A DNA stretch of 63,063 nt, the filler included, from Methanobacteriota archaeon (lineage in GTDB: Archaea > JACRDV01), in assembly GCA_024860865.1 (NCBI GenBank). It is 11 parts of 11 records of this genome, joined end to end, with 100 filler letters (N's around TTAATTAATTAA, not from the genome) between each part and the next. Parts side by side here need not be neighbours in the genome. Positions count along the whole stretch, not along the records: positions 7,117 to 13,228 come from JACRDV010000024.1; 10 more parts are not named here. One strand, written 5' to 3'. The notes under the pieces are model-generated. The model was not told where the DNA came from. It saw only the letters and a program-made list of their open reading frames with translations, and did not search any database. The position numbers and the translations under genes are program-made. Below, piece by piece: positions 7,117-13,520 of this stretch. Position 1 is the first letter of the stretch. Each line of letters begins with the position of its first letter.

Positions 7117-7303
7117 AAAAAAGTTAACTTACAAGCCAATCGGACTATAGATTTTGAAAATAGGAAGAGACCATACAGAAAAATAACGCCATACGAGTTC
7201 TTCGACAAAGTTGAAAAAAGAGTACCAACTTCTCTTCCTAGAAGACTACAAATAAATACACAAAAGATTAACCAACGAGATCAAACTCTAACCACTAAGC
7301 AGA

Positions 7304-7362
7304 ACAGGCACCTACACCATCACCCTAGAATTCTGGCCCCAAAAACTCTTCTACATCGGCTC
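7304..7362 (+). repeat. 59-bp direct repeat, copy 1
   Basis: ACAGGCACCTACACCATCACCCTAGAATTCTGGCCCCAAAAACTCTTCTACATCGGCTC; 57/59 identical to 8138-8196. Confidence 0.95.
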
Positions 7363-7438
7363 TTGAGCCCCAAGAAATGGCAAGTTGCACGAAAAGGCTA
7401 TAAGTTATTATGTAGTTACATAGTTATATGGTGATATT

Positions 7439-7666
7439 TTGGGAAAGTATGCGACAATTTCGGTTCCCGTTGATGTCAAAAAGCTCTTGGAAAAGGCTAA
7501 GGGCAGAGATGAATGGGGCAGTTTTCTCCTCAAACTATACGCAGAGGTTAAGAGGTTGAAGAGTAAGAAGGCATTCGAGGAGCTGGCAAACACTCTCACT
7601 GGCGAAGACTTGAAAGCCATAATCGAATCCAGCAAAGAGTTTAGGGAAAGGTTCGCGTTCAGATGA
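7439..7666 (+). CDS. vapB: VapB-type antitoxin
   Basis: 75 aa with a ribbon-helix-helix-like start (YATISVPVDVKKLL); ATGA overlap with the PIN gene. Confidence 0.75.
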   Translation: MGKYATISVPVDVKKLLEKAKGRDEWGSFLLKLYAEVKRLKSKKAFEELANTLTGEDLKAIIESSKEFRERFAFR

Positions 7667-8031
7667 ACCTACTTGACACAGACATAATCATAGAGATACT
7701 ACGAGAGAGAAGATACGAAGTCGGAGCCATCTCAATCATAACACTTACCGAGGTGTTAAGAGGACTAGAAGCCAGAAAAAGAGCCAAAGTCAAAGAGTTA
7801 CTCGAAAAAAGCTTTAACCTACTAAATCTAGACAACGAAGTCATAGGAACCTACTGCAACCTATATTACAAGCTCAAAGAGGAAGGCACACTTATACCAG
7901 ACGCCGACCTGCTCATAGCCGCAACAACAATGTCCCACAACATGATGTTAAAAACAAAAGATGAACACTTCGAAAGATTGAGACATTTAGGCTTAAAGCT
8001 AGCACAAGCATCTCAAGAGCGGAGAGAATAG
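7663..8031 (+). CDS. vapC: VapC/PIN-domain toxin
   Basis: PIN acidic residues in LLDTDIII, TLTE, DADLLIAA and TKDEHF. Confidence 0.9.
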   Translation: MNLLDTDIIIEILRERRYEVGAISIITLTEVLRGLEARKRAKVKELLEKSFNLLNLDNEVIGTYCNLYYKLKEEGTLIPDADLLIAATTMSHNMMLKTKDEHFERLRHLGLKLAQASQERRE

Positions 8032-8107
8032 ATCAATCCCGCCCAAAAACTGGATCGCACATATCATCAGAAAACAAATACCGCACAAATAACAATTCAT
8101 AATCAAA

Positions 8108-8266
8108 GACTTCGCTAATGCTTGGTACATTAACAAGACAGGCACCTACACTGTCACCCTAGAATTCTGGCCCCAAAAACTCTTCTACATCGGCTCCACA
8201 ATATCAATAACAACCCTCACCATATGCATACTATATATCAGCAACAAGAAAGAGATAGAAAAATAA
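8108..8266 (+). pseudogene. Orphan C-terminal remnant of a membrane-anchored protein, containing repeat copy 2 (8138-8196)
   Basis: Translates as DFANAWYINKTGTYTVTLEFWPQKLFYIGSTISITTLTICILYISNKKEIEK*: a beta-strand end, a transmembrane helix and a basic tail, with no start codon. Confidence 0.6.
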
Positions 8267-8306
8267 ATTTATGAATTTTTAAGACAGGCTTATTTGGCCT
8301 CTATAG

Positions 8307-9284
8307 TTACCTAAGAATTGCAAACAAAATAGCAATCATAGCATAAACAACTTCCAATGTTAAAATGCGTTGTACTAGTTGCTTTTCATTAAGCGACCCT
8401 GAAATAAGAAATGCATGAGCTAAGGCCGGATATTGTGGCGGTGTGAGAATACCATCTTCCCTAACTTTTGTGTCTCCATAGATATATCGGCCAGCGAACG
8501 GCCTCCTTACCATCATCTTTAATGTGAAATCGATAGCATATGGAATCATTAATATTACACATATGAACTCAATTTTTCCAATAATAGCAGCGGAGGCTAT
8601 TGTAGCACCAATTAAGAGAGTTCCAGAATTGCCTGGGAAAATTTTTGCTGGATACCAATTATAGTATAAAAATGCAATCAAAGCAGCAGCCAGAGGTAAT
8701 ATTATGATTACAACCTCAAGTTTGTTAAGAATAACTGCTGCTACTGAAATAGCGCTGCAGGCAATGAAGCCAACTCCAGCTTCTAGTCCATTAAATCCGG
8801 CGAGCATATTAGTTAAGTTTGATGCAGTTGTTATAGCAAGCGGAATTAGAACAAACCAATAAAGTTGTCCAAATTCTAAAGACCCGATTAAAGGAATTGT
8901 TATAGATGTGCTTTGACCGTGGGAAGCGATAATAAGAGGATAAGAAAAAATAGCAGGAAGAAGGAACTTGTAACGTTGCCTAATTGGTCTTAAATCGTCT
9001 ATTCCTCCAAGCAGACCTATTAAAACAGCAGTTAAAATAGCGAAACTTAATTTTTCTGTGGGAAATATTGTTGGGAAAATCAACAAAGTTGTAGAGACGG
9101 CTAGAGCATAACCAAATAAAATAATAAGTCCTCCAGATGTTGGAACCCATGTTGGATTAAATTTGTGAATGTCTCTGCAAAGAAGTCCGAGTTTTCTGAA
9201 TTTATCGATTAAAACAGGTGTCGTAATATAGGTAAAGAAAAACGCTATAGTAAAAGAAGTTATAAGGGCTAAAACCATTTTCAT
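8307..9284 (-). CDS. UDP-GlcNAc:polyprenol-phosphate GlcNAc-1-phosphate transferase (MraY/AglH/DPAGT1 family)
   Basis: Multi-transmembrane; DIHK, PTSGG, GGIDD, NLTNMLAGFNGLEAG and YPAKIFPGN motifs. ATG 9284 overlaps the upstream stop (ATGA). Confidence 0.9.
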   Translation of the reverse strand: MKMVLALITSFTIAFFFTYITTPVLIDKFRKLGLLCRDIHKFNPTWVPTSGGLIILFGYALAVSTTLLIFPTIFPTEKLSFAILTAVLIGLLGGIDDLRPIRQRYKFLLPAIFSYPLIIASHGQSTSITIPLIGSLEFGQLYWFVLIPLAITTASNLTNMLAGFNGLEAGVGFIACSAISVAAVILNKLEVVIIILPLAAALIAFLYYNWYPAKIFPGNSGTLLIGATIASAAIIGKIEFICVILMIPYAIDFTLKMMVRRPFAGRYIYGDTKVREDGILTPPQYPALAHAFLISGSLNEKQLVQRILTLEVVYAMIAILFAILR

Positions 9285-9508
9285 AATTGTTGCCTTGAAA
9301 GTTTTACAACTATTTTCCAGAGGATCATGGTTCCGATGGCAAATCCAGTTATTCCACAAATCATAGTTAATAGCGCATTAGCAATGAGAGCTAAGTTATA
9401 GCTGAAAAGCCAACCGAGGTACAAACCCAAATAGCTCAGAAAAAATGTTACAAAATTAGTAATTAGTATTTTCCAAAAGTTTTTTTGTGCAAATCGCAAC
9501 TCTAGCAC
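9281..9508 (-). CDS. Small two-helix membrane protein
   Basis: 75 aa hydrophobic ORF, translationally coupled to the transferase. Confidence 0.6.
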   Translation of the reverse strand: MLELRFAQKNFWKILITNFVTFFLSYLGLYLGWLFSYNLALIANALLTMICGITGFAIGTMILWKIVVKLSRQQL

Positions 9509-9630
9509 ATCTTTAACTTGATTGATTATTATTTAAAAACAAACTATAATAATATTCACCGCATTGCCCGCATCTACAATCATATTTTCCTCGACGACTT
9601 TATCTTTTTGAGAACTTACTGAAAAGAAAA

Positions 9631-12600
9631 CTAATTTATAATAAGTTTGAAGTAAAGGTCAGTCTCATCTTTAAATATATCGTAATTACTCTTTTCAATT
9701 TTTAGAGGTTTACTGGTTATAGATGTAATAGCCATGGCTATAGCGCTGCAAAGGGGGCATCCTATTATTTCGCAGATAGATGGCTTCGTTTTACTCACGC
9801 TATCGCACACATAAGATAGTTTAGATCCTTTCAATTTTACATGAACTGTATCATCTTCTTGATGAGCATATACCTCAGTAGCAAGGTCAAGTTTGTCAAC
9901 AAGAATAGATGGTAATCTATCAATAAATTCTTCTAACGAAATGTTTTCCTTCCCCAATTCGCTCTTAATAATGTTGTAAAGATTTTCTCCAATTGGAGTC
10001 ACAACTAATTCTCCACCTTTAGTAGGCACAAGTATTTTGCCAGTTGGCAGGTAAATCCCTTTTCCAATAACTCCAATTTCTTGGAAGAGATGGCAAAAAG
10101 CATTGAGGGAGGAAACAATTCCTTGACTTGTTAAAGCGCTTCTTGTGTACATTTCTATTGCAAAATATAGTAGAATAAAGCCTATGGCAAAAGCAGATAT
10201 TACAGTGAACTCTGATGATACAGACCCAAATACAAAAGCAGTTATGGTTGCAATTGCACTTAAAATTAACAATGCCAATCCAGGTAGAAATCTCTTTTTC
10301 TTCCTCAAATACCAAACAAATTCTCTTATCTTCTCTTGTTTCTTGGCATATTCTAATTTCTTAGATAATTCAGGTATAATTGAAAAAGGTAGTTTAATTA
10401 TTTCTCCAAGTTTGAATGAAAGAATAGTTGTATTTTTCTCTGAATTGTGTTCATGTCTTTCAAGCGAGACTTGCCTGCCTGTGGCTTTGGCTATCGCTAA
10501 AGCTAGAGCACTGCATATTGGGCAACCAGTGAGATCACAAATGGAACTTTTGGCATCGGCTAATTGTTGGCAGACTTCTGAAAAGCGTGAACCACCTACG
10601 ATTATCTCAACGCTATCGCTTCCATTCTTAGTTATTTTAACCTCATCAGCTATCTCTATTCCATCTTTTAGGACGGGTGGGAGAGCATCTATTAGATAAT
10701 CAATTCCAACTCCCTGAAGGCCAGTGCCCAATTCCCTCTCTATGTTAGTGAGACTTTCCGACCCAACTGACTGAACCAGTGCTTCATTATCTGGAATAGT
10801 TGATTGGTCTTTTACACCTAAATTTGTTTTTTTGAGAAGATTTCCAAGCGATAAAAGAGGCGATAGGATTAATCTCGTTGCTACCTTTGAGGGTAAATAA
10901 CTTTCAAAGCCATGGCCTAGCAAAATTATACCCATCATAATAAAAACTACGGTAACTATTGCCCATGTAGTAGACCATTTTGAGAGAGCAATAGCCATCG
11001 TAAGAGAGCATGAACCCAAAAGAGTTAAACCAGCCAAAGAAATTTTAGATTCTTTAATTACAAACCATATAACTTTTAACTTGTCAATTGATCGCGAGAA
11101 AGGATTAAATTGTAAAGAAGGGAGAGCAGAATTCCAAATAAGCGAGGGGCTATCGCCCAACATTAAATGTCTTTTTATGAGTCCTTTATTCTCCAAACTT
11201 TCAAGAGCTTTTAGCACATTATGATCATTTAAGTAAGATGGTGGCATATTTTTATGGGCAGTGATTAAATCTAGAACTGTATTTTCATTTTCTGAAAGGT
11301 GGCGCTGAAGGAGGCGCAATCTATTTGTTCTTCTTTCAGAATGAATAGCAACTATTGCAGCGAGGACAGCTAACAAAATTGCTAAAAATACTATTGCTGG
11401 TCCAATGTTATAATAGAGAGTATAAACAAAAGCAATGGGTATAGATTGGCCTTTAATTTGCTGCCAGTGTGTGACAATAGCTTTTCCTAATTCTACAAGA
11501 ATATCTGCAACTGCCTGGTAGTCAGAAGGATCTGATATGATTCCTTTCGAGGCAAAAGTTTCAGTATAAGCTAAGAGGCTCAAACCTACTGCACGAGCTC
11601 CAGGGGCTGTGTCAGTTTTAAGAAATATTTGATCGGTAAAAGTAAACACAACTGGAGTCTGGCGAAGCGGAGTATTAAAAACTAACACATCCCCTCGCAA
11701 AAGGGGAGATTCGGCAAGCATTTTGCTCCATCGAGCATCAAGTTTCCACCCTTGCGTTACCGGTAAGCAAGCTAGCCAGCCACCCACTATATGTAGGAGC
11801 GGAGAAGTTGGAGCTGTCTCTACATACACTGTTACCATTTTATTGTCTATTGAGCCAGGAGCAATTTTTTCGTAAGCATATATGTGGGCATTTAAAGATT
11901 GATAATATCCAGATATTGGCTCAACATATGTTAGTCTCCAACCAGAGAAGTTCGCAGGGAGTAATAGCTCCGCGTCTTTTCCTTCTGGGGTATATCTTGC
12001 AACATATGCAGGGTCTAATTTTGGAACTATAATAAGTGGAACGCTTGCAAATAAGAAAAGGAGAAGGATGACTGAGAGAGCAGTGGCTTTAAAAACAATT
12101 CGAACTCCGCTAACTTTTGGTTTTGGAATTATTGAGGCTATTCTATCTATTGCTTGAGTTGATATTTTTGGACTTTTTATTATTGAAAGTGCAATCACAA
12201 TGAAAGCAGCTGTTACTGTTATTACCCATCCACCGAATAAGTGAAATGCCTCTACTGCAAATCCATTGCCATAAAGATAGCCAATACCAATTATTGCACA
12301 TATTCGAATTATGTTAAGCAAATATACTATAAGACATCCTGCGACAAATATTGAAATTTTTTTAATTAATGAACCCTTGATAATGTAAGCTAGGAAAACT
12401 CCAAATGCTATGAATCCAAGAAGTGAGTAAATCCCTGCGCATGGCAATCCTACAATAAATGATAAGGGCTCTCCAGCACGAGATACGAGATTTACAATAT
12501 AGGCTCCTTGAGAAGTTGATAGCATAAGAGGTATTCCAAGAGCTCTCAATACAAAAACAGTTACACTGGCACTGATTGCAATCGATGTAGCAGCTAATAA

Positions 12601-13228
12601 AACAATGAAACTGAGAGGTAATGGGCACATTAAAGTTAAATAACCTATTGGAAATGCTAGTGCTCGAAGTCCTTCGAATCCAAGAAAAAGAACAATGCAA
12701 CCTATAATGAACATTATAAGTGATAGTATGTGGAGTTGTAATTGAAGCAAAGAGAAAGTTCCATAGAAGTAGAGGGTAAAGGCAAATAAGCATAAGGCCA
12801 GACCAATTAAATCTTGAGGTAAGCTTGGGTCTTTGCTAAGCTGAGCTACTGCTTTTAAGGCTGCTCTTTTTCTATAAACTAGATAAGTTGCGACTATTGG
12901 TACAATTAAAATATAACGTGCATAATCGTTTAGTAGAATCTCGTGCCATAGTGCAATAAAATCTTTGTGATAAGCTATCGCAACAACAGCGGCTATGGTT
13001 AAGAACTTATAATAAACGATTATTCCTTGTTTTAATGCGATTAACCACTTGGCTTCCACCAAACGGGTGAATTCAATAATTTTCTTTTTAATCTTCTTTA
13101 ATGAATTGCGCAGATAAACAGCAAATGTAGCTAGAGCAGATGCAAGAGATCCAAGGATTGGAAATTCAGGAACGGGGACTGGGTTGGTTGAAGAGGGAAA
13201 ATAAACTAGGCTATCGCGAGTAGAACTA
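9631..13228 (-). CDS. Multidomain exosortase/archaeosortase fusion, 5'-incomplete: PEF-CTERM-like segment, sortase, EpsI-like domain, winged-helix-like segment and two TM-Cys4 modules
   Basis: Catalytic triad C (GLPCAG, 12439-12441), R (NIIRI, 12304-12306) and H (AFHLFGG, 12241-12243). The frame stays open from the called start at 13062 to the contig edge at 13228. Confidence 0.85.
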
Positions 13229-13328
13229 NNNNNNNNNNNNNNNNNNNNNNNNNNNNNNNNNNNNNNNNNNNNTTAATTAATTAANNNNNNNNNNNNNNNN
13301 NNNNNNNNNNNNNNNNNNNNNNNNNNNN
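13229..13328. other. Artificial contig linker
   Basis: N run with TTAATTAATTAA. Confidence 0.99.
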
Positions 13329-13520
13329 ACTGCTTATAGCATATGTAATAATTATCAACCCATTTATAAAAAGTGCGAGAATCCCAACAAAAGTTAAAGT
13401 TGATAGTGCTCTAAGCTTAAATTCTAATCGCCAGCTGTAAGTATAAGAAACATGGATTGCACTGAGCGCCAGCACAAAACCTGTAACCATAATGTAAAAA
13501 ACTTGAAGAGCAGTAAACAA
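13329..13520 (-). CDS. Membrane protein, 3'-truncated by the contig end
   Basis: Two hydrophobic helices; GAGGT ribosome-binding site; abuts the stop of the CcmC-like gene. Confidence 0.55.

Follow-up and report, generated by a model that had tools for sequence, protein, structure and literature searches.

The locus described here raises the question of whether a sorting enzyme of the exosortase type can be encoded in one polypeptide with a sorting signal of the kind its own substrates carry. It lies on the minus strand of contig JACRDV010000024.1, from a Methanobacteriota archaeon (Archaea; JACRDV01; GenBank assembly GCA_024860865.1), and ends at the edge of that contig. The contig occupies positions 7117-13228 of the stretch of DNA that was analysed (the window; 63,063 nt, filler included), in which 11 contigs are joined by 10 spacers of N around TTAATTAATTAA, a sequence that places a stop codon in all frames. 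An initial annotation of the window read the locus as an archaeosortase fused in frame to its own PEF-CTERM-like sorting signal. The explanation favoured here, to which we give roughly an even chance of being correct, is that the locus is a real in-frame fusion of a conserved gene pair, consisting of a small secreted protein with a (V/I)PE-x signal and its exosortase, and that it has also absorbed two DUF7982 neighbours at its 3′ end.

ORF-listing rules place the start of this open reading frame (ORF) at TTG 13062, giving a protein of 1143 aa. The initial annotation held that the ORF does not begin there, and the minus-strand frame is indeed open from 13227 to the stop codon at 9631-9633, a run of 1198 codons (P0001) that reaches the contig edge at 13228. 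The 55 codons above TTG 13062 contain neither a stop nor an ATG, GTG or TTG in frame, and both of the remaining minus-strand frames are interrupted by stops within 13063-13228. For the 32 other stop-bounded ORFs of at least 200 aa in the window, the open codons from the upstream stop to the first start number 3 at the median and 19 at most, none reaching 55, and 55 random codons with the composition of this sequence would stay open with a probability of about 0.035. Reassignment of a stop codon was rejected as an explanation, the ORF having no in-frame stop under translation table 11. A unitig from Logan, produced by an independent assembler from a groundwater metagenome (run X1, record 3), covers 12998-13228 without an indel and ends at the same base, with a depth at the junction of about 4-6. 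Logan contigs from runs X1-X4 provided no extension, all ending at or before 13228 with no loose ends reported. The open frame to the contig edge is confirmed, with the reservation that the evidence comes from the terminal 166 bases of a single contig of low coverage.

The initial annotation had described the first 55 codons correctly, as a linker, a PEF motif (13162-13170), a hydrophobic helix and a basic cluster. The tripartite layout of a sorting signal is present, with the motif abutting the hydrophobic helix and the basic cluster following (Table 1). A profile was built from the (V/I)PE-x tails of 68 relatives (see below), with the query left out, and was run on 20,096 six-frame ORFs taken from the window and the relatives' loci. 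Query residues 18-37 score 15.2 bits (E = 0.013), and the top score on the reversed database of 20,096 ORFs is 9.0 bits. In 151 other proteins of the enzyme family (90,038 residues, rich in transmembrane (TM) segments) the only match of at least 12 bits is a true C-terminal signal, that of the exosortase-subtilase protein P0130 described below. P20 of the query falls in an invariant column of a 21-sequence alignment, and E21 and G26 fall in columns that are at least 90% conserved. The signal is not at the extreme C-terminus, since it is followed by 1161 residues in the query, compared with at most 45 in the other 91 profile matches of at least 12 bits. No other signal-bearing ORF was found in the window, and no passenger was found on its other contigs, tblastn of the 68 relatives' substrates against the window having given no matches. 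Taken together, these results support the identification of the segment as a genuine tripartite signal, of the type cognate to substrates encoded beside this enzyme family.

Models from curated collections were less informative. None of the curated CTERM models, PEF-CTERM and PEP-CTERM included, matched residues 1-61 at E≤10, but little can be made of this negative result, as nine of ten relatives' substrates go unmatched by these models too; the VVPEP tail encoded in L008 passes PEP-CTERM (21.7 bits versus a cut-off of 16) and reaches 20.5 bits with Pfam PF07589 (cut-off 20.7). The name PEF-CTERM-like is to be amended accordingly: the layout and the relatives' profile identify a sorting signal, and the curated PEF-CTERM model itself gives no match. 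The helix is moderately hydrophobic, remaining below 1.6 in a 19-residue hydropathy scan and averaging about 1.7 in a hand sum over its 17 residues. A complex prediction for the exosortase domain with the signal segment returned a score of 0.00 without controls, and is counted neither way.

The enzyme passes the cut-offs of PF09721 (119.6 bits versus 25.7) and of TIGR04178, the generic exosortase/archaeosortase signature (50.7 bits versus 23). It misses those of the named exosortases, including XrtW (104.8 versus 425), XrtA (96.2 versus 208), XrtD (78.5 versus 400) and 8TM_EpsH (70.2 versus 105.55), and no archaeosortase subfamily model in NCBIfam matched it at E≤1. The label of archaeosortase was accordingly dropped, the best alignments being the sub-cut-off ones to XrtW, XrtA and XrtD, and from its sequence the enzyme is classed as a member of an unnamed exosortase-like clade. 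The Cys-Arg-His triad noted in the initial annotation stands: C263, R308 and H329, the proposed catalytic residues, occupy columns that are at least 90% conserved across an alignment of 26 members of the family, as does N305, and R308 is invariant. The core has about eight TM helices, seven of which give clear hydropathy peaks within residues 68-350, with a shorter helix at ~104-118 recognized by eye. The 15.2-bit signal lies, as had been claimed, in frame and N-terminal to an intact exosortase domain. The ectodomain that follows the core had no family match in hidden Markov model (HMM) searches. A CxxC...CxxCG Zn-ribbon carried by most relatives is absent from the query (residues ~350-380; 12100-12190 of the window, minus strand).

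All 25 aligned homologues begin 10-45 residues ahead of the first exosortase helix, the region in which the TTG/GTG pair of the query lies. An ATG near the N-terminus of the enzyme is present in 62 of 73 relatives, and none is in frame in the query. Similarly, an SD-like (Shine-Dalgarno-like) 4-mer precedes the start in 17 of 51 relatives (background 0.12) and is not found before the query TTG/GTG; no positional promoter or SD consensus was found upstream of the exosortase genes of these 51 relatives. The lack of both an ATG and an SD-like motif fits, if weakly, translation from upstream.

An exhaustive profile-free search identified 2461 relatives at E≤0.001, the closest of which are only 37-39% identical to the query. 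Their genomic context was compared in 73 loci (L001-L073) from species-representative genomes, collected by a scan with a five-row alignment and derived nearly all from metagenome-assembled genomes (MAGs) of Bathyarchaeia. L063, L024 and L073 are in MAGs labelled Methanocella, Nanoarchaeia and Peribacteria, which mis-binning or gene transfer could explain. A typical family member has ~680 aa, arranged as exosortase, Zn-ribbon, TM helix, ectodomain of ~200 aa, TM helix and cytoplasmic domain. A motif-blind scan of the 73 loci for ORFs of at least 150 aa with a C-terminal hydrophobic stretch and K/R residues returned 55 ORFs, most of them with (V/I)-P-E right before the helix; a motif-aware scan returned 68 tails. 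The motif is (V/I)PE followed by F, Y, V, L, I, P or S, and neighbouring ORFs ending in it, a helix and K/R residues occur in 54 of the 73 loci. They are concentrated next to the enzyme, as the 29 loci with both 10-kb flanks contain 10 signal ORFs in the 2-kb bin upstream and 17 in the one downstream, compared with 1-5 in every other bin. Many loci hold several substrates, with up to four signal ORFs per 20-kb locus (L007, L013). Among the relatives' passengers, Ig-like and MG2-type matches are weak and fall below threshold, and one passenger has a clear ice-binding-like domain; this is what surface proteins would be expected to show.

The arrangement that the query presents as one ORF is found in these relatives as two genes. 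At least 13 of the 73 loci have a same-strand substrate gene immediately ahead of the exosortase, at a distance of 21-310 nt, although the tails in four of these (L039, L045, L047 and L066) are near-identical and not independent; the profile adds upstream substrate genes in L049, L056 and L065. In L063 the two separate genes share a reading frame and are only 21 nt apart, such that one substitution would fuse them. Searches for nearer relatives of the fused form were negative: 594 pattern matches to residues 1-200 in JGI metagenome contigs included none that was confirmed, and 1192 shorter candidate proteins sharing words with residues 1-150 included none at E≤0.001. A search for proteins of near-equal length found only two relatives, at 26-27% identity.

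Fusions of other kinds are present in the family, and in the query itself. The C-terminal 480 residues of the query form an internal repeat (33% identity, E = 6e-27) of two modules that score 0.90 in Atlas to DUF7982 clusters, with PF25939 among the precomputed annotations; a Pfam scan gave no match. In 42 of the 73 loci DUF7982 is encoded by separate genes neighbouring the exosortase, and P0031 is fused to one copy. By the 'Rosetta stone' argument the fusion would link this domain of unknown function to exosortase-dependent sorting. More directly comparable is P0130 (914 aa, 28% identity to the query), which consists of an exosortase, a subtilase propeptide, a Peptidase_S8 domain, a PPC domain and a C-terminal IPE-L signal. 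The exosortase-subtilase-signal order is retained as one uninterrupted ORF in five contigs (L074-L078) at 54-100% identity to P0130, and since it is retained at 54% identity it is not an assembly error. Related loci (L080-L084) are split into a 320-aa exosortase, a ParB-like gene and a subtilase of 791-822 aa with the same signal. Fusion is thus a habit of this exosortase family. Long N-terminal extensions in P0008, P0076 and L018 (about 8435-12100) were identified as a Wzx/MurJ-type flippase (Polysacc_synt_3 with Exosortase_EpsH); these flippase fusions tie the exosortase system to glycan export, as in bacterial exopolysaccharide (EPS) loci.

Several observations weigh against a real, functional fusion in the query. 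The fusion occupies the final 166 bases of a single contig at the depth given above, the passenger would continue beyond the edge, and any upstream start codon, signal peptide and passenger domain would lie outside the contig. The Logan record that covers the junction represents a second haplotype, and differs from the contig at three unlisted positions in 12998-13228, one of which could be a stop. The AAA, AAG, GAA and TTA codons of the tail are each one substitution short of a stop, and since both shifted frames reach a stop within 4-13 codons, a 1-nt change in the A-runs of 13081-13095 would also give one; a single mutation or error could therefore make or unmake the fusion. The TTG/GTG at 13057-13062 is exactly at the homologues' starts, and the enzyme could therefore be translated alone. 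When an internal signal N-terminal to the sortase domain was looked for elsewhere, as the initial annotation had suggested, neither the 73 loci nor the 151 other family proteins gave a single ORF with a signal ahead of the enzyme, and in this comparison the order fused in the query is unique. The initial annotation had also taken separate genes in all close relatives, implying a recent stop loss, as a sign against its proposal. The relatives do have separate genes, 13 of the 73 loci with the substrate gene directly upstream, but nothing above 39% identity was found in any collection searched, and because no closer relative was found the age of the fusion cannot be judged.

These points are the strength of an explanation in which the locus comprises two genes, the exosortase starts at TTG or GTG, and the single ORF reflects a sequencing or assembly error, or a very recent and selectively irrelevant stop loss or 1-nt indel in a population of low coverage. 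The split, in signal-then-enzyme order, is common to every relative, and L063 is one substitution from the fused state. Even so, we regard this as fairly unlikely, since two assemblers concur and neither has an indel, the intergenic spacer of 21-310 nt in relatives is reduced to nil, the enzyme part lacks both ATG and SD-like motif, the same ORF has a second, internal and well-covered fusion to the DUF7982 modules, and fusions of enzyme and substrate persist stably in other members of the family. A related proposal accepts the fusion at the DNA level and has the locus act as two cistrons, with the exosortase made mainly from the internal TTG 13062 or GTG 13059, for which a promoter inside the A/T-rich Lys codons may serve, and the upstream frame yielding a substrate with a long, rarely completed extension. 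In its favour, these codons are where members of the family usually begin, and the A/T-rich ATTAAAAAG (about 13084-13092) has its centre ~26 nt upstream of the TTG, as far as a TATA box lies from a leaderless start in archaea. A TATA-like stretch is, however, expected here from composition, as Lys codons are A-rich; the upstream regions of 51 relatives give no positional consensus for comparison, the SD-like motif is absent, and a ribosome coming from upstream would meet no stop. Such a two-cistron locus seems quite improbable to us. It is more improbable by far that the N-terminal segment is simply one more TM helix in a larger membrane protein, with PEF present by chance. The silence of the curated CTERM models at E≤10, the moderate hydrophobicity of the helix, under the 1.6 scan threshold, and the identity of the family's other N-terminal fusions as flippases rather than substrates would all agree with chance, but those models also miss nine of ten true relatives' tails, the family profile reaches 15.2 bits, whereas 20,096 reversed ORFs yield no more than 9.0 and the TM helices of 150 other exosortase proteins no match of at least 12 bits, and the P, E and G of the query occupy invariant or near-invariant columns of the relatives' tails.

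If the locus is a real in-frame fusion of substrate and exosortase, its product would be one polytopic membrane protein with the passenger outside and VPEF at the outer face of the membrane. The signal helix would run from outside to inside and end in the Lys cluster, followed by a Lys-rich cytoplasmic loop of ~25 residues, and the first exosortase helix would return outward, with the RKR loop after helix 2 again inside. In the resulting 8-TM exosortase, Cys263, Arg308 and His329 would be at the outer face, Cys263 at the outer end of a helix that is followed by KGSLIKK inside. The predicted topology is coherent, placing the motif outside and the basic cluster and enzyme N-terminus inside, and because it follows the positive-inside rule it would put VPEF and the catalytic Cys on the same face of the membrane. 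The loop of ~25 residues may have the length needed to bring the signal helix to the active site within its own or a neighbouring chain. The active site of the same chain, or that of a second copy, would then cut at or near VPEF, as with a separate substrate, freeing the passenger for anchoring; the enzyme would keep the signal helix as one more TM segment at its N-terminus. The expectation of a cut at this place comes from an internal PGF signal in Haloferax volcanii that is still cut by ArtA (PMC6098224). We infer that the fused form is made as one chain and then cleaved. A bolder version, which we consider unlikely, is that Bathyarchaeia exosortase loci repeatedly collapse into surface 'polyproteins', single chains of sorting enzyme, substrate and accessory DUF7982 modules, and that the query cuts its own passenger at VPEF in cis, in a single-turnover, zymogen-like maturation. 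We know of no sortase-like system in which such a cis cut both anchors a passenger and matures the enzyme.

The locus resembles the PEP-CTERM/exosortase systems of the EpsH or XrtA type in having an Exosortase_EpsH domain with Cys, Arg and His, in its best NCBIfam alignments (XrtW, XrtA and XrtD), and in substrates with a motif that abuts a helix and a basic tail. Some exosortases carry EpsI as an extra extracellular domain after the enzyme, as described in PMC1569441, and the query also has an extracellular domain in that place. Unlike those systems, the host of the query is archaeal (Bathyarchaeia), its enzyme is under every subfamily cut-off, the family motif is (V/I)PE plus F/Y/V/L/I/P/S rather than strict PEP, and the family adds the Zn-ribbon, ectodomain and cytoplasmic domain to reach its total of ~680 aa. 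With the archaeosortases ArtA-ArtE (PGF-CTERM, PEF-CTERM) the query shares the TIGR04178 signature and the same proposed Cys/Arg/His chemistry; their removal of a C-terminal helix and anchoring of the protein, as given in PMC6098224 and in a 2023 preprint (10.1101/2023.06.07.544157), would by analogy be the processing expected here. The same sources place archaeosortases in a subset of Euryarchaeota, the halophiles and methanogens, whereas the query belongs to another phylum, has no subfamily match at E≤1 and bears a tag that the curated CTERM models do not score. The query would be expected to act like a PEP-CTERM/exosortase or archaeosortase system, as a member of the same superfamily outside the cut-off of every named subfamily.

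The initial annotation knew of no described case of this architecture. That holds for the enzyme as the fusion partner; an internal signal created by fusion is in print, as PMC6098224 recounts from Abdul Halim et al. 2017 that an ArtA substrate of H. volcanii has an internal PGF signal through a strain-specific fusion with a downstream NifU-domain gene, and that this signal is still recognized and cut, N- and C-terminal fragments both being detectable. As in the query, the signal there was made internal by in-frame fusion with the next gene. There ArtA works in trans, the partner being an unrelated cytoplasmic domain, whereas in the query the partner is the enzyme, which would make cleavage in cis possible with the enzyme as the 'leaving group'. 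Dedicated one-to-one pairs of sorting enzyme and target encoded by consecutive genes are described in the preprint (10.1101/2023.06.07.544157). The relatives' substrate genes likewise adjoin the exosortase and are enriched in the flanking 2 kb; unlike such pairs, many of these loci have several substrates, and the query pair is a single ORF. P0130 and L074-L078 are of the same superfamily and, like the query, combine an enzyme and a (V/I)PE-x protein in one ORF with related loci split. In contrast to the query, they have the enzyme first and the substrate last, the signal remaining at the true C-terminus; their parting would require a signal-peptidase-type cleavage at the retained signal peptide rather than exosortase, and their enzyme is short (about 310-320 aa), lacking the ectodomain and the cytoplasmic domain. 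An exosortase fused to a CAAX-type protease domain was the basis of an earlier 'Rosetta stone' argument (Haft 2006, PMC1569441). There, too, an exosortase is naturally joined to a partner with a linked function, this partner being a second protease and not a substrate or signal.

Table 1. Features of the fused locus, its contig and the joined window, and fused exosortase-subtilase ORFs in related contigs. Positions are those of the window unless preceded by a locus name.
Feature	Position	Strand	Basis or remark
Last 19 residues of the presumed passenger, Ser/Thr/Pro-rich linker	13171-13227	-	ORF leaves the contig here
PEF motif (residues 20-22), preceded by V-P-V	13162-13170	-	P and E align to relatives' signals
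Hydrophobic helix, 17 residues (23-39)	13111-13161	-	Abuts the motif without spacer; layout as in 68 relatives' tails
Basic cluster RNSLKKIKKK (residues 40-49), predicted cytoplasmic	13081-13110	-	Relatives' tails end in K/R clusters
Six-codon in-frame spacer	13063-13080	-	Relatives have a stop codon and 21-310 nt of intergenic DNA here
TTG-GTG, only candidate internal starts	13057-13062 (TTG 13060-13062)	-	At homologues' N-termini; no upstream SD-like 4-mer
Exosortase_EpsH domain (residues 80-347)	12187-12990	-	PF09721, TIGR04178
C263	12439-12441	-	Family alignment
N305/R308	12304-12315 (R308 = 12304-12306)	-	Family alignment
H329	12241-12243	-	Family alignment
TM helix (residues 383-401) and extracellular domain of ~200 residues	11401-12081	-	Position of the family's conserved ectodomain; no HMM name
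TM helix (residues 610-628) and conserved cytoplasmic C-terminal domain	11083-11400	-	Winged-helix-like by eye
Two tandem putative DUF7982 (PF25939) modules, each with 2 TM helices and C-x4-GCPxCS	9634-11082	-	Fused to the enzyme C-terminus (480 residues)
Glycosyltransferase family 4 (polyprenyl-phosphate sugar-phosphate transferase type)	8307-9359	-	PF00953, 129.2 bits; downstream of the fused ORF
N/TTAATTAATTAA spacer	13229-13328	none	Artificial; DNA past the spacer is not contiguous with the fused ORF
Spacers between contigs	2622, 7061, 13273, 17705, 29168, 36756, 42454, 45128, 54958, 60404		Artificial
Fused exosortase-subtilase	L075:5992-8745		100% identity to P0130
Fused exosortase-subtilase	L074:1195-3954		88% identity to P0130
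Fused exosortase-subtilase	L076		82% identity to P0130; ORF cut by contig end
Fused exosortase-subtilase	L077:1203-4535, L078:2850-6182		54% identity to P0130; 1110 aa

The glycosyltransferase gene that directly follows the fused ORF on the same strand is in keeping with a locus for surface glycoproteins and with glycosylation of the sorted proteins. Elsewhere on the contig, 7439-8031 on the plus strand holds a 75-aa ORF and an overlapping 122-aa ORF that by eye resemble a VapB/VapC (PIN-domain) toxin-antitoxin pair. An Rfam scan of the window gave no matches. Contigs that are side by side in the window need not adjoin in the genome, and ORFs that touch the spacers are artefacts, such as one of 79 aa at 13281-13520 on the minus strand, the first codon of which is inside a spacer.

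Whether archaeosortases are one-step transpeptidases is still unclear, according to the 2023 preprint (10.1101/2023.06.07.544157). A single chain holding both the enzyme and its cognate signal would help with this question, as would the exosortase-subtilase fusions, and either type of fusion would provide a self-contained assay for a little-studied class of enzyme. The query would be a natural single-chain enzyme-substrate construct of specialist interest, tempered by the thin sequence support for its own fusion; if it proved to be only a stop loss, it would still be a natural analogue of the Haloferax substrate with the internal signal. Searches of the open-access literature yielded no paper that treats exosortases of Bathyarchaeia or fusions of enzyme and substrate such as this one, nor one on any of the three features that this analysis newly defines: an exosortase-like clade nearly restricted to Bathyarchaeia, the clade's (V/I)PE-x signal, which curated models mostly miss, and its linkage to DUF7982 by 'Rosetta stone' fusion. 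A dedicated (V/I)PE-x profile would annotate many surface proteins of Bathyarchaeia.

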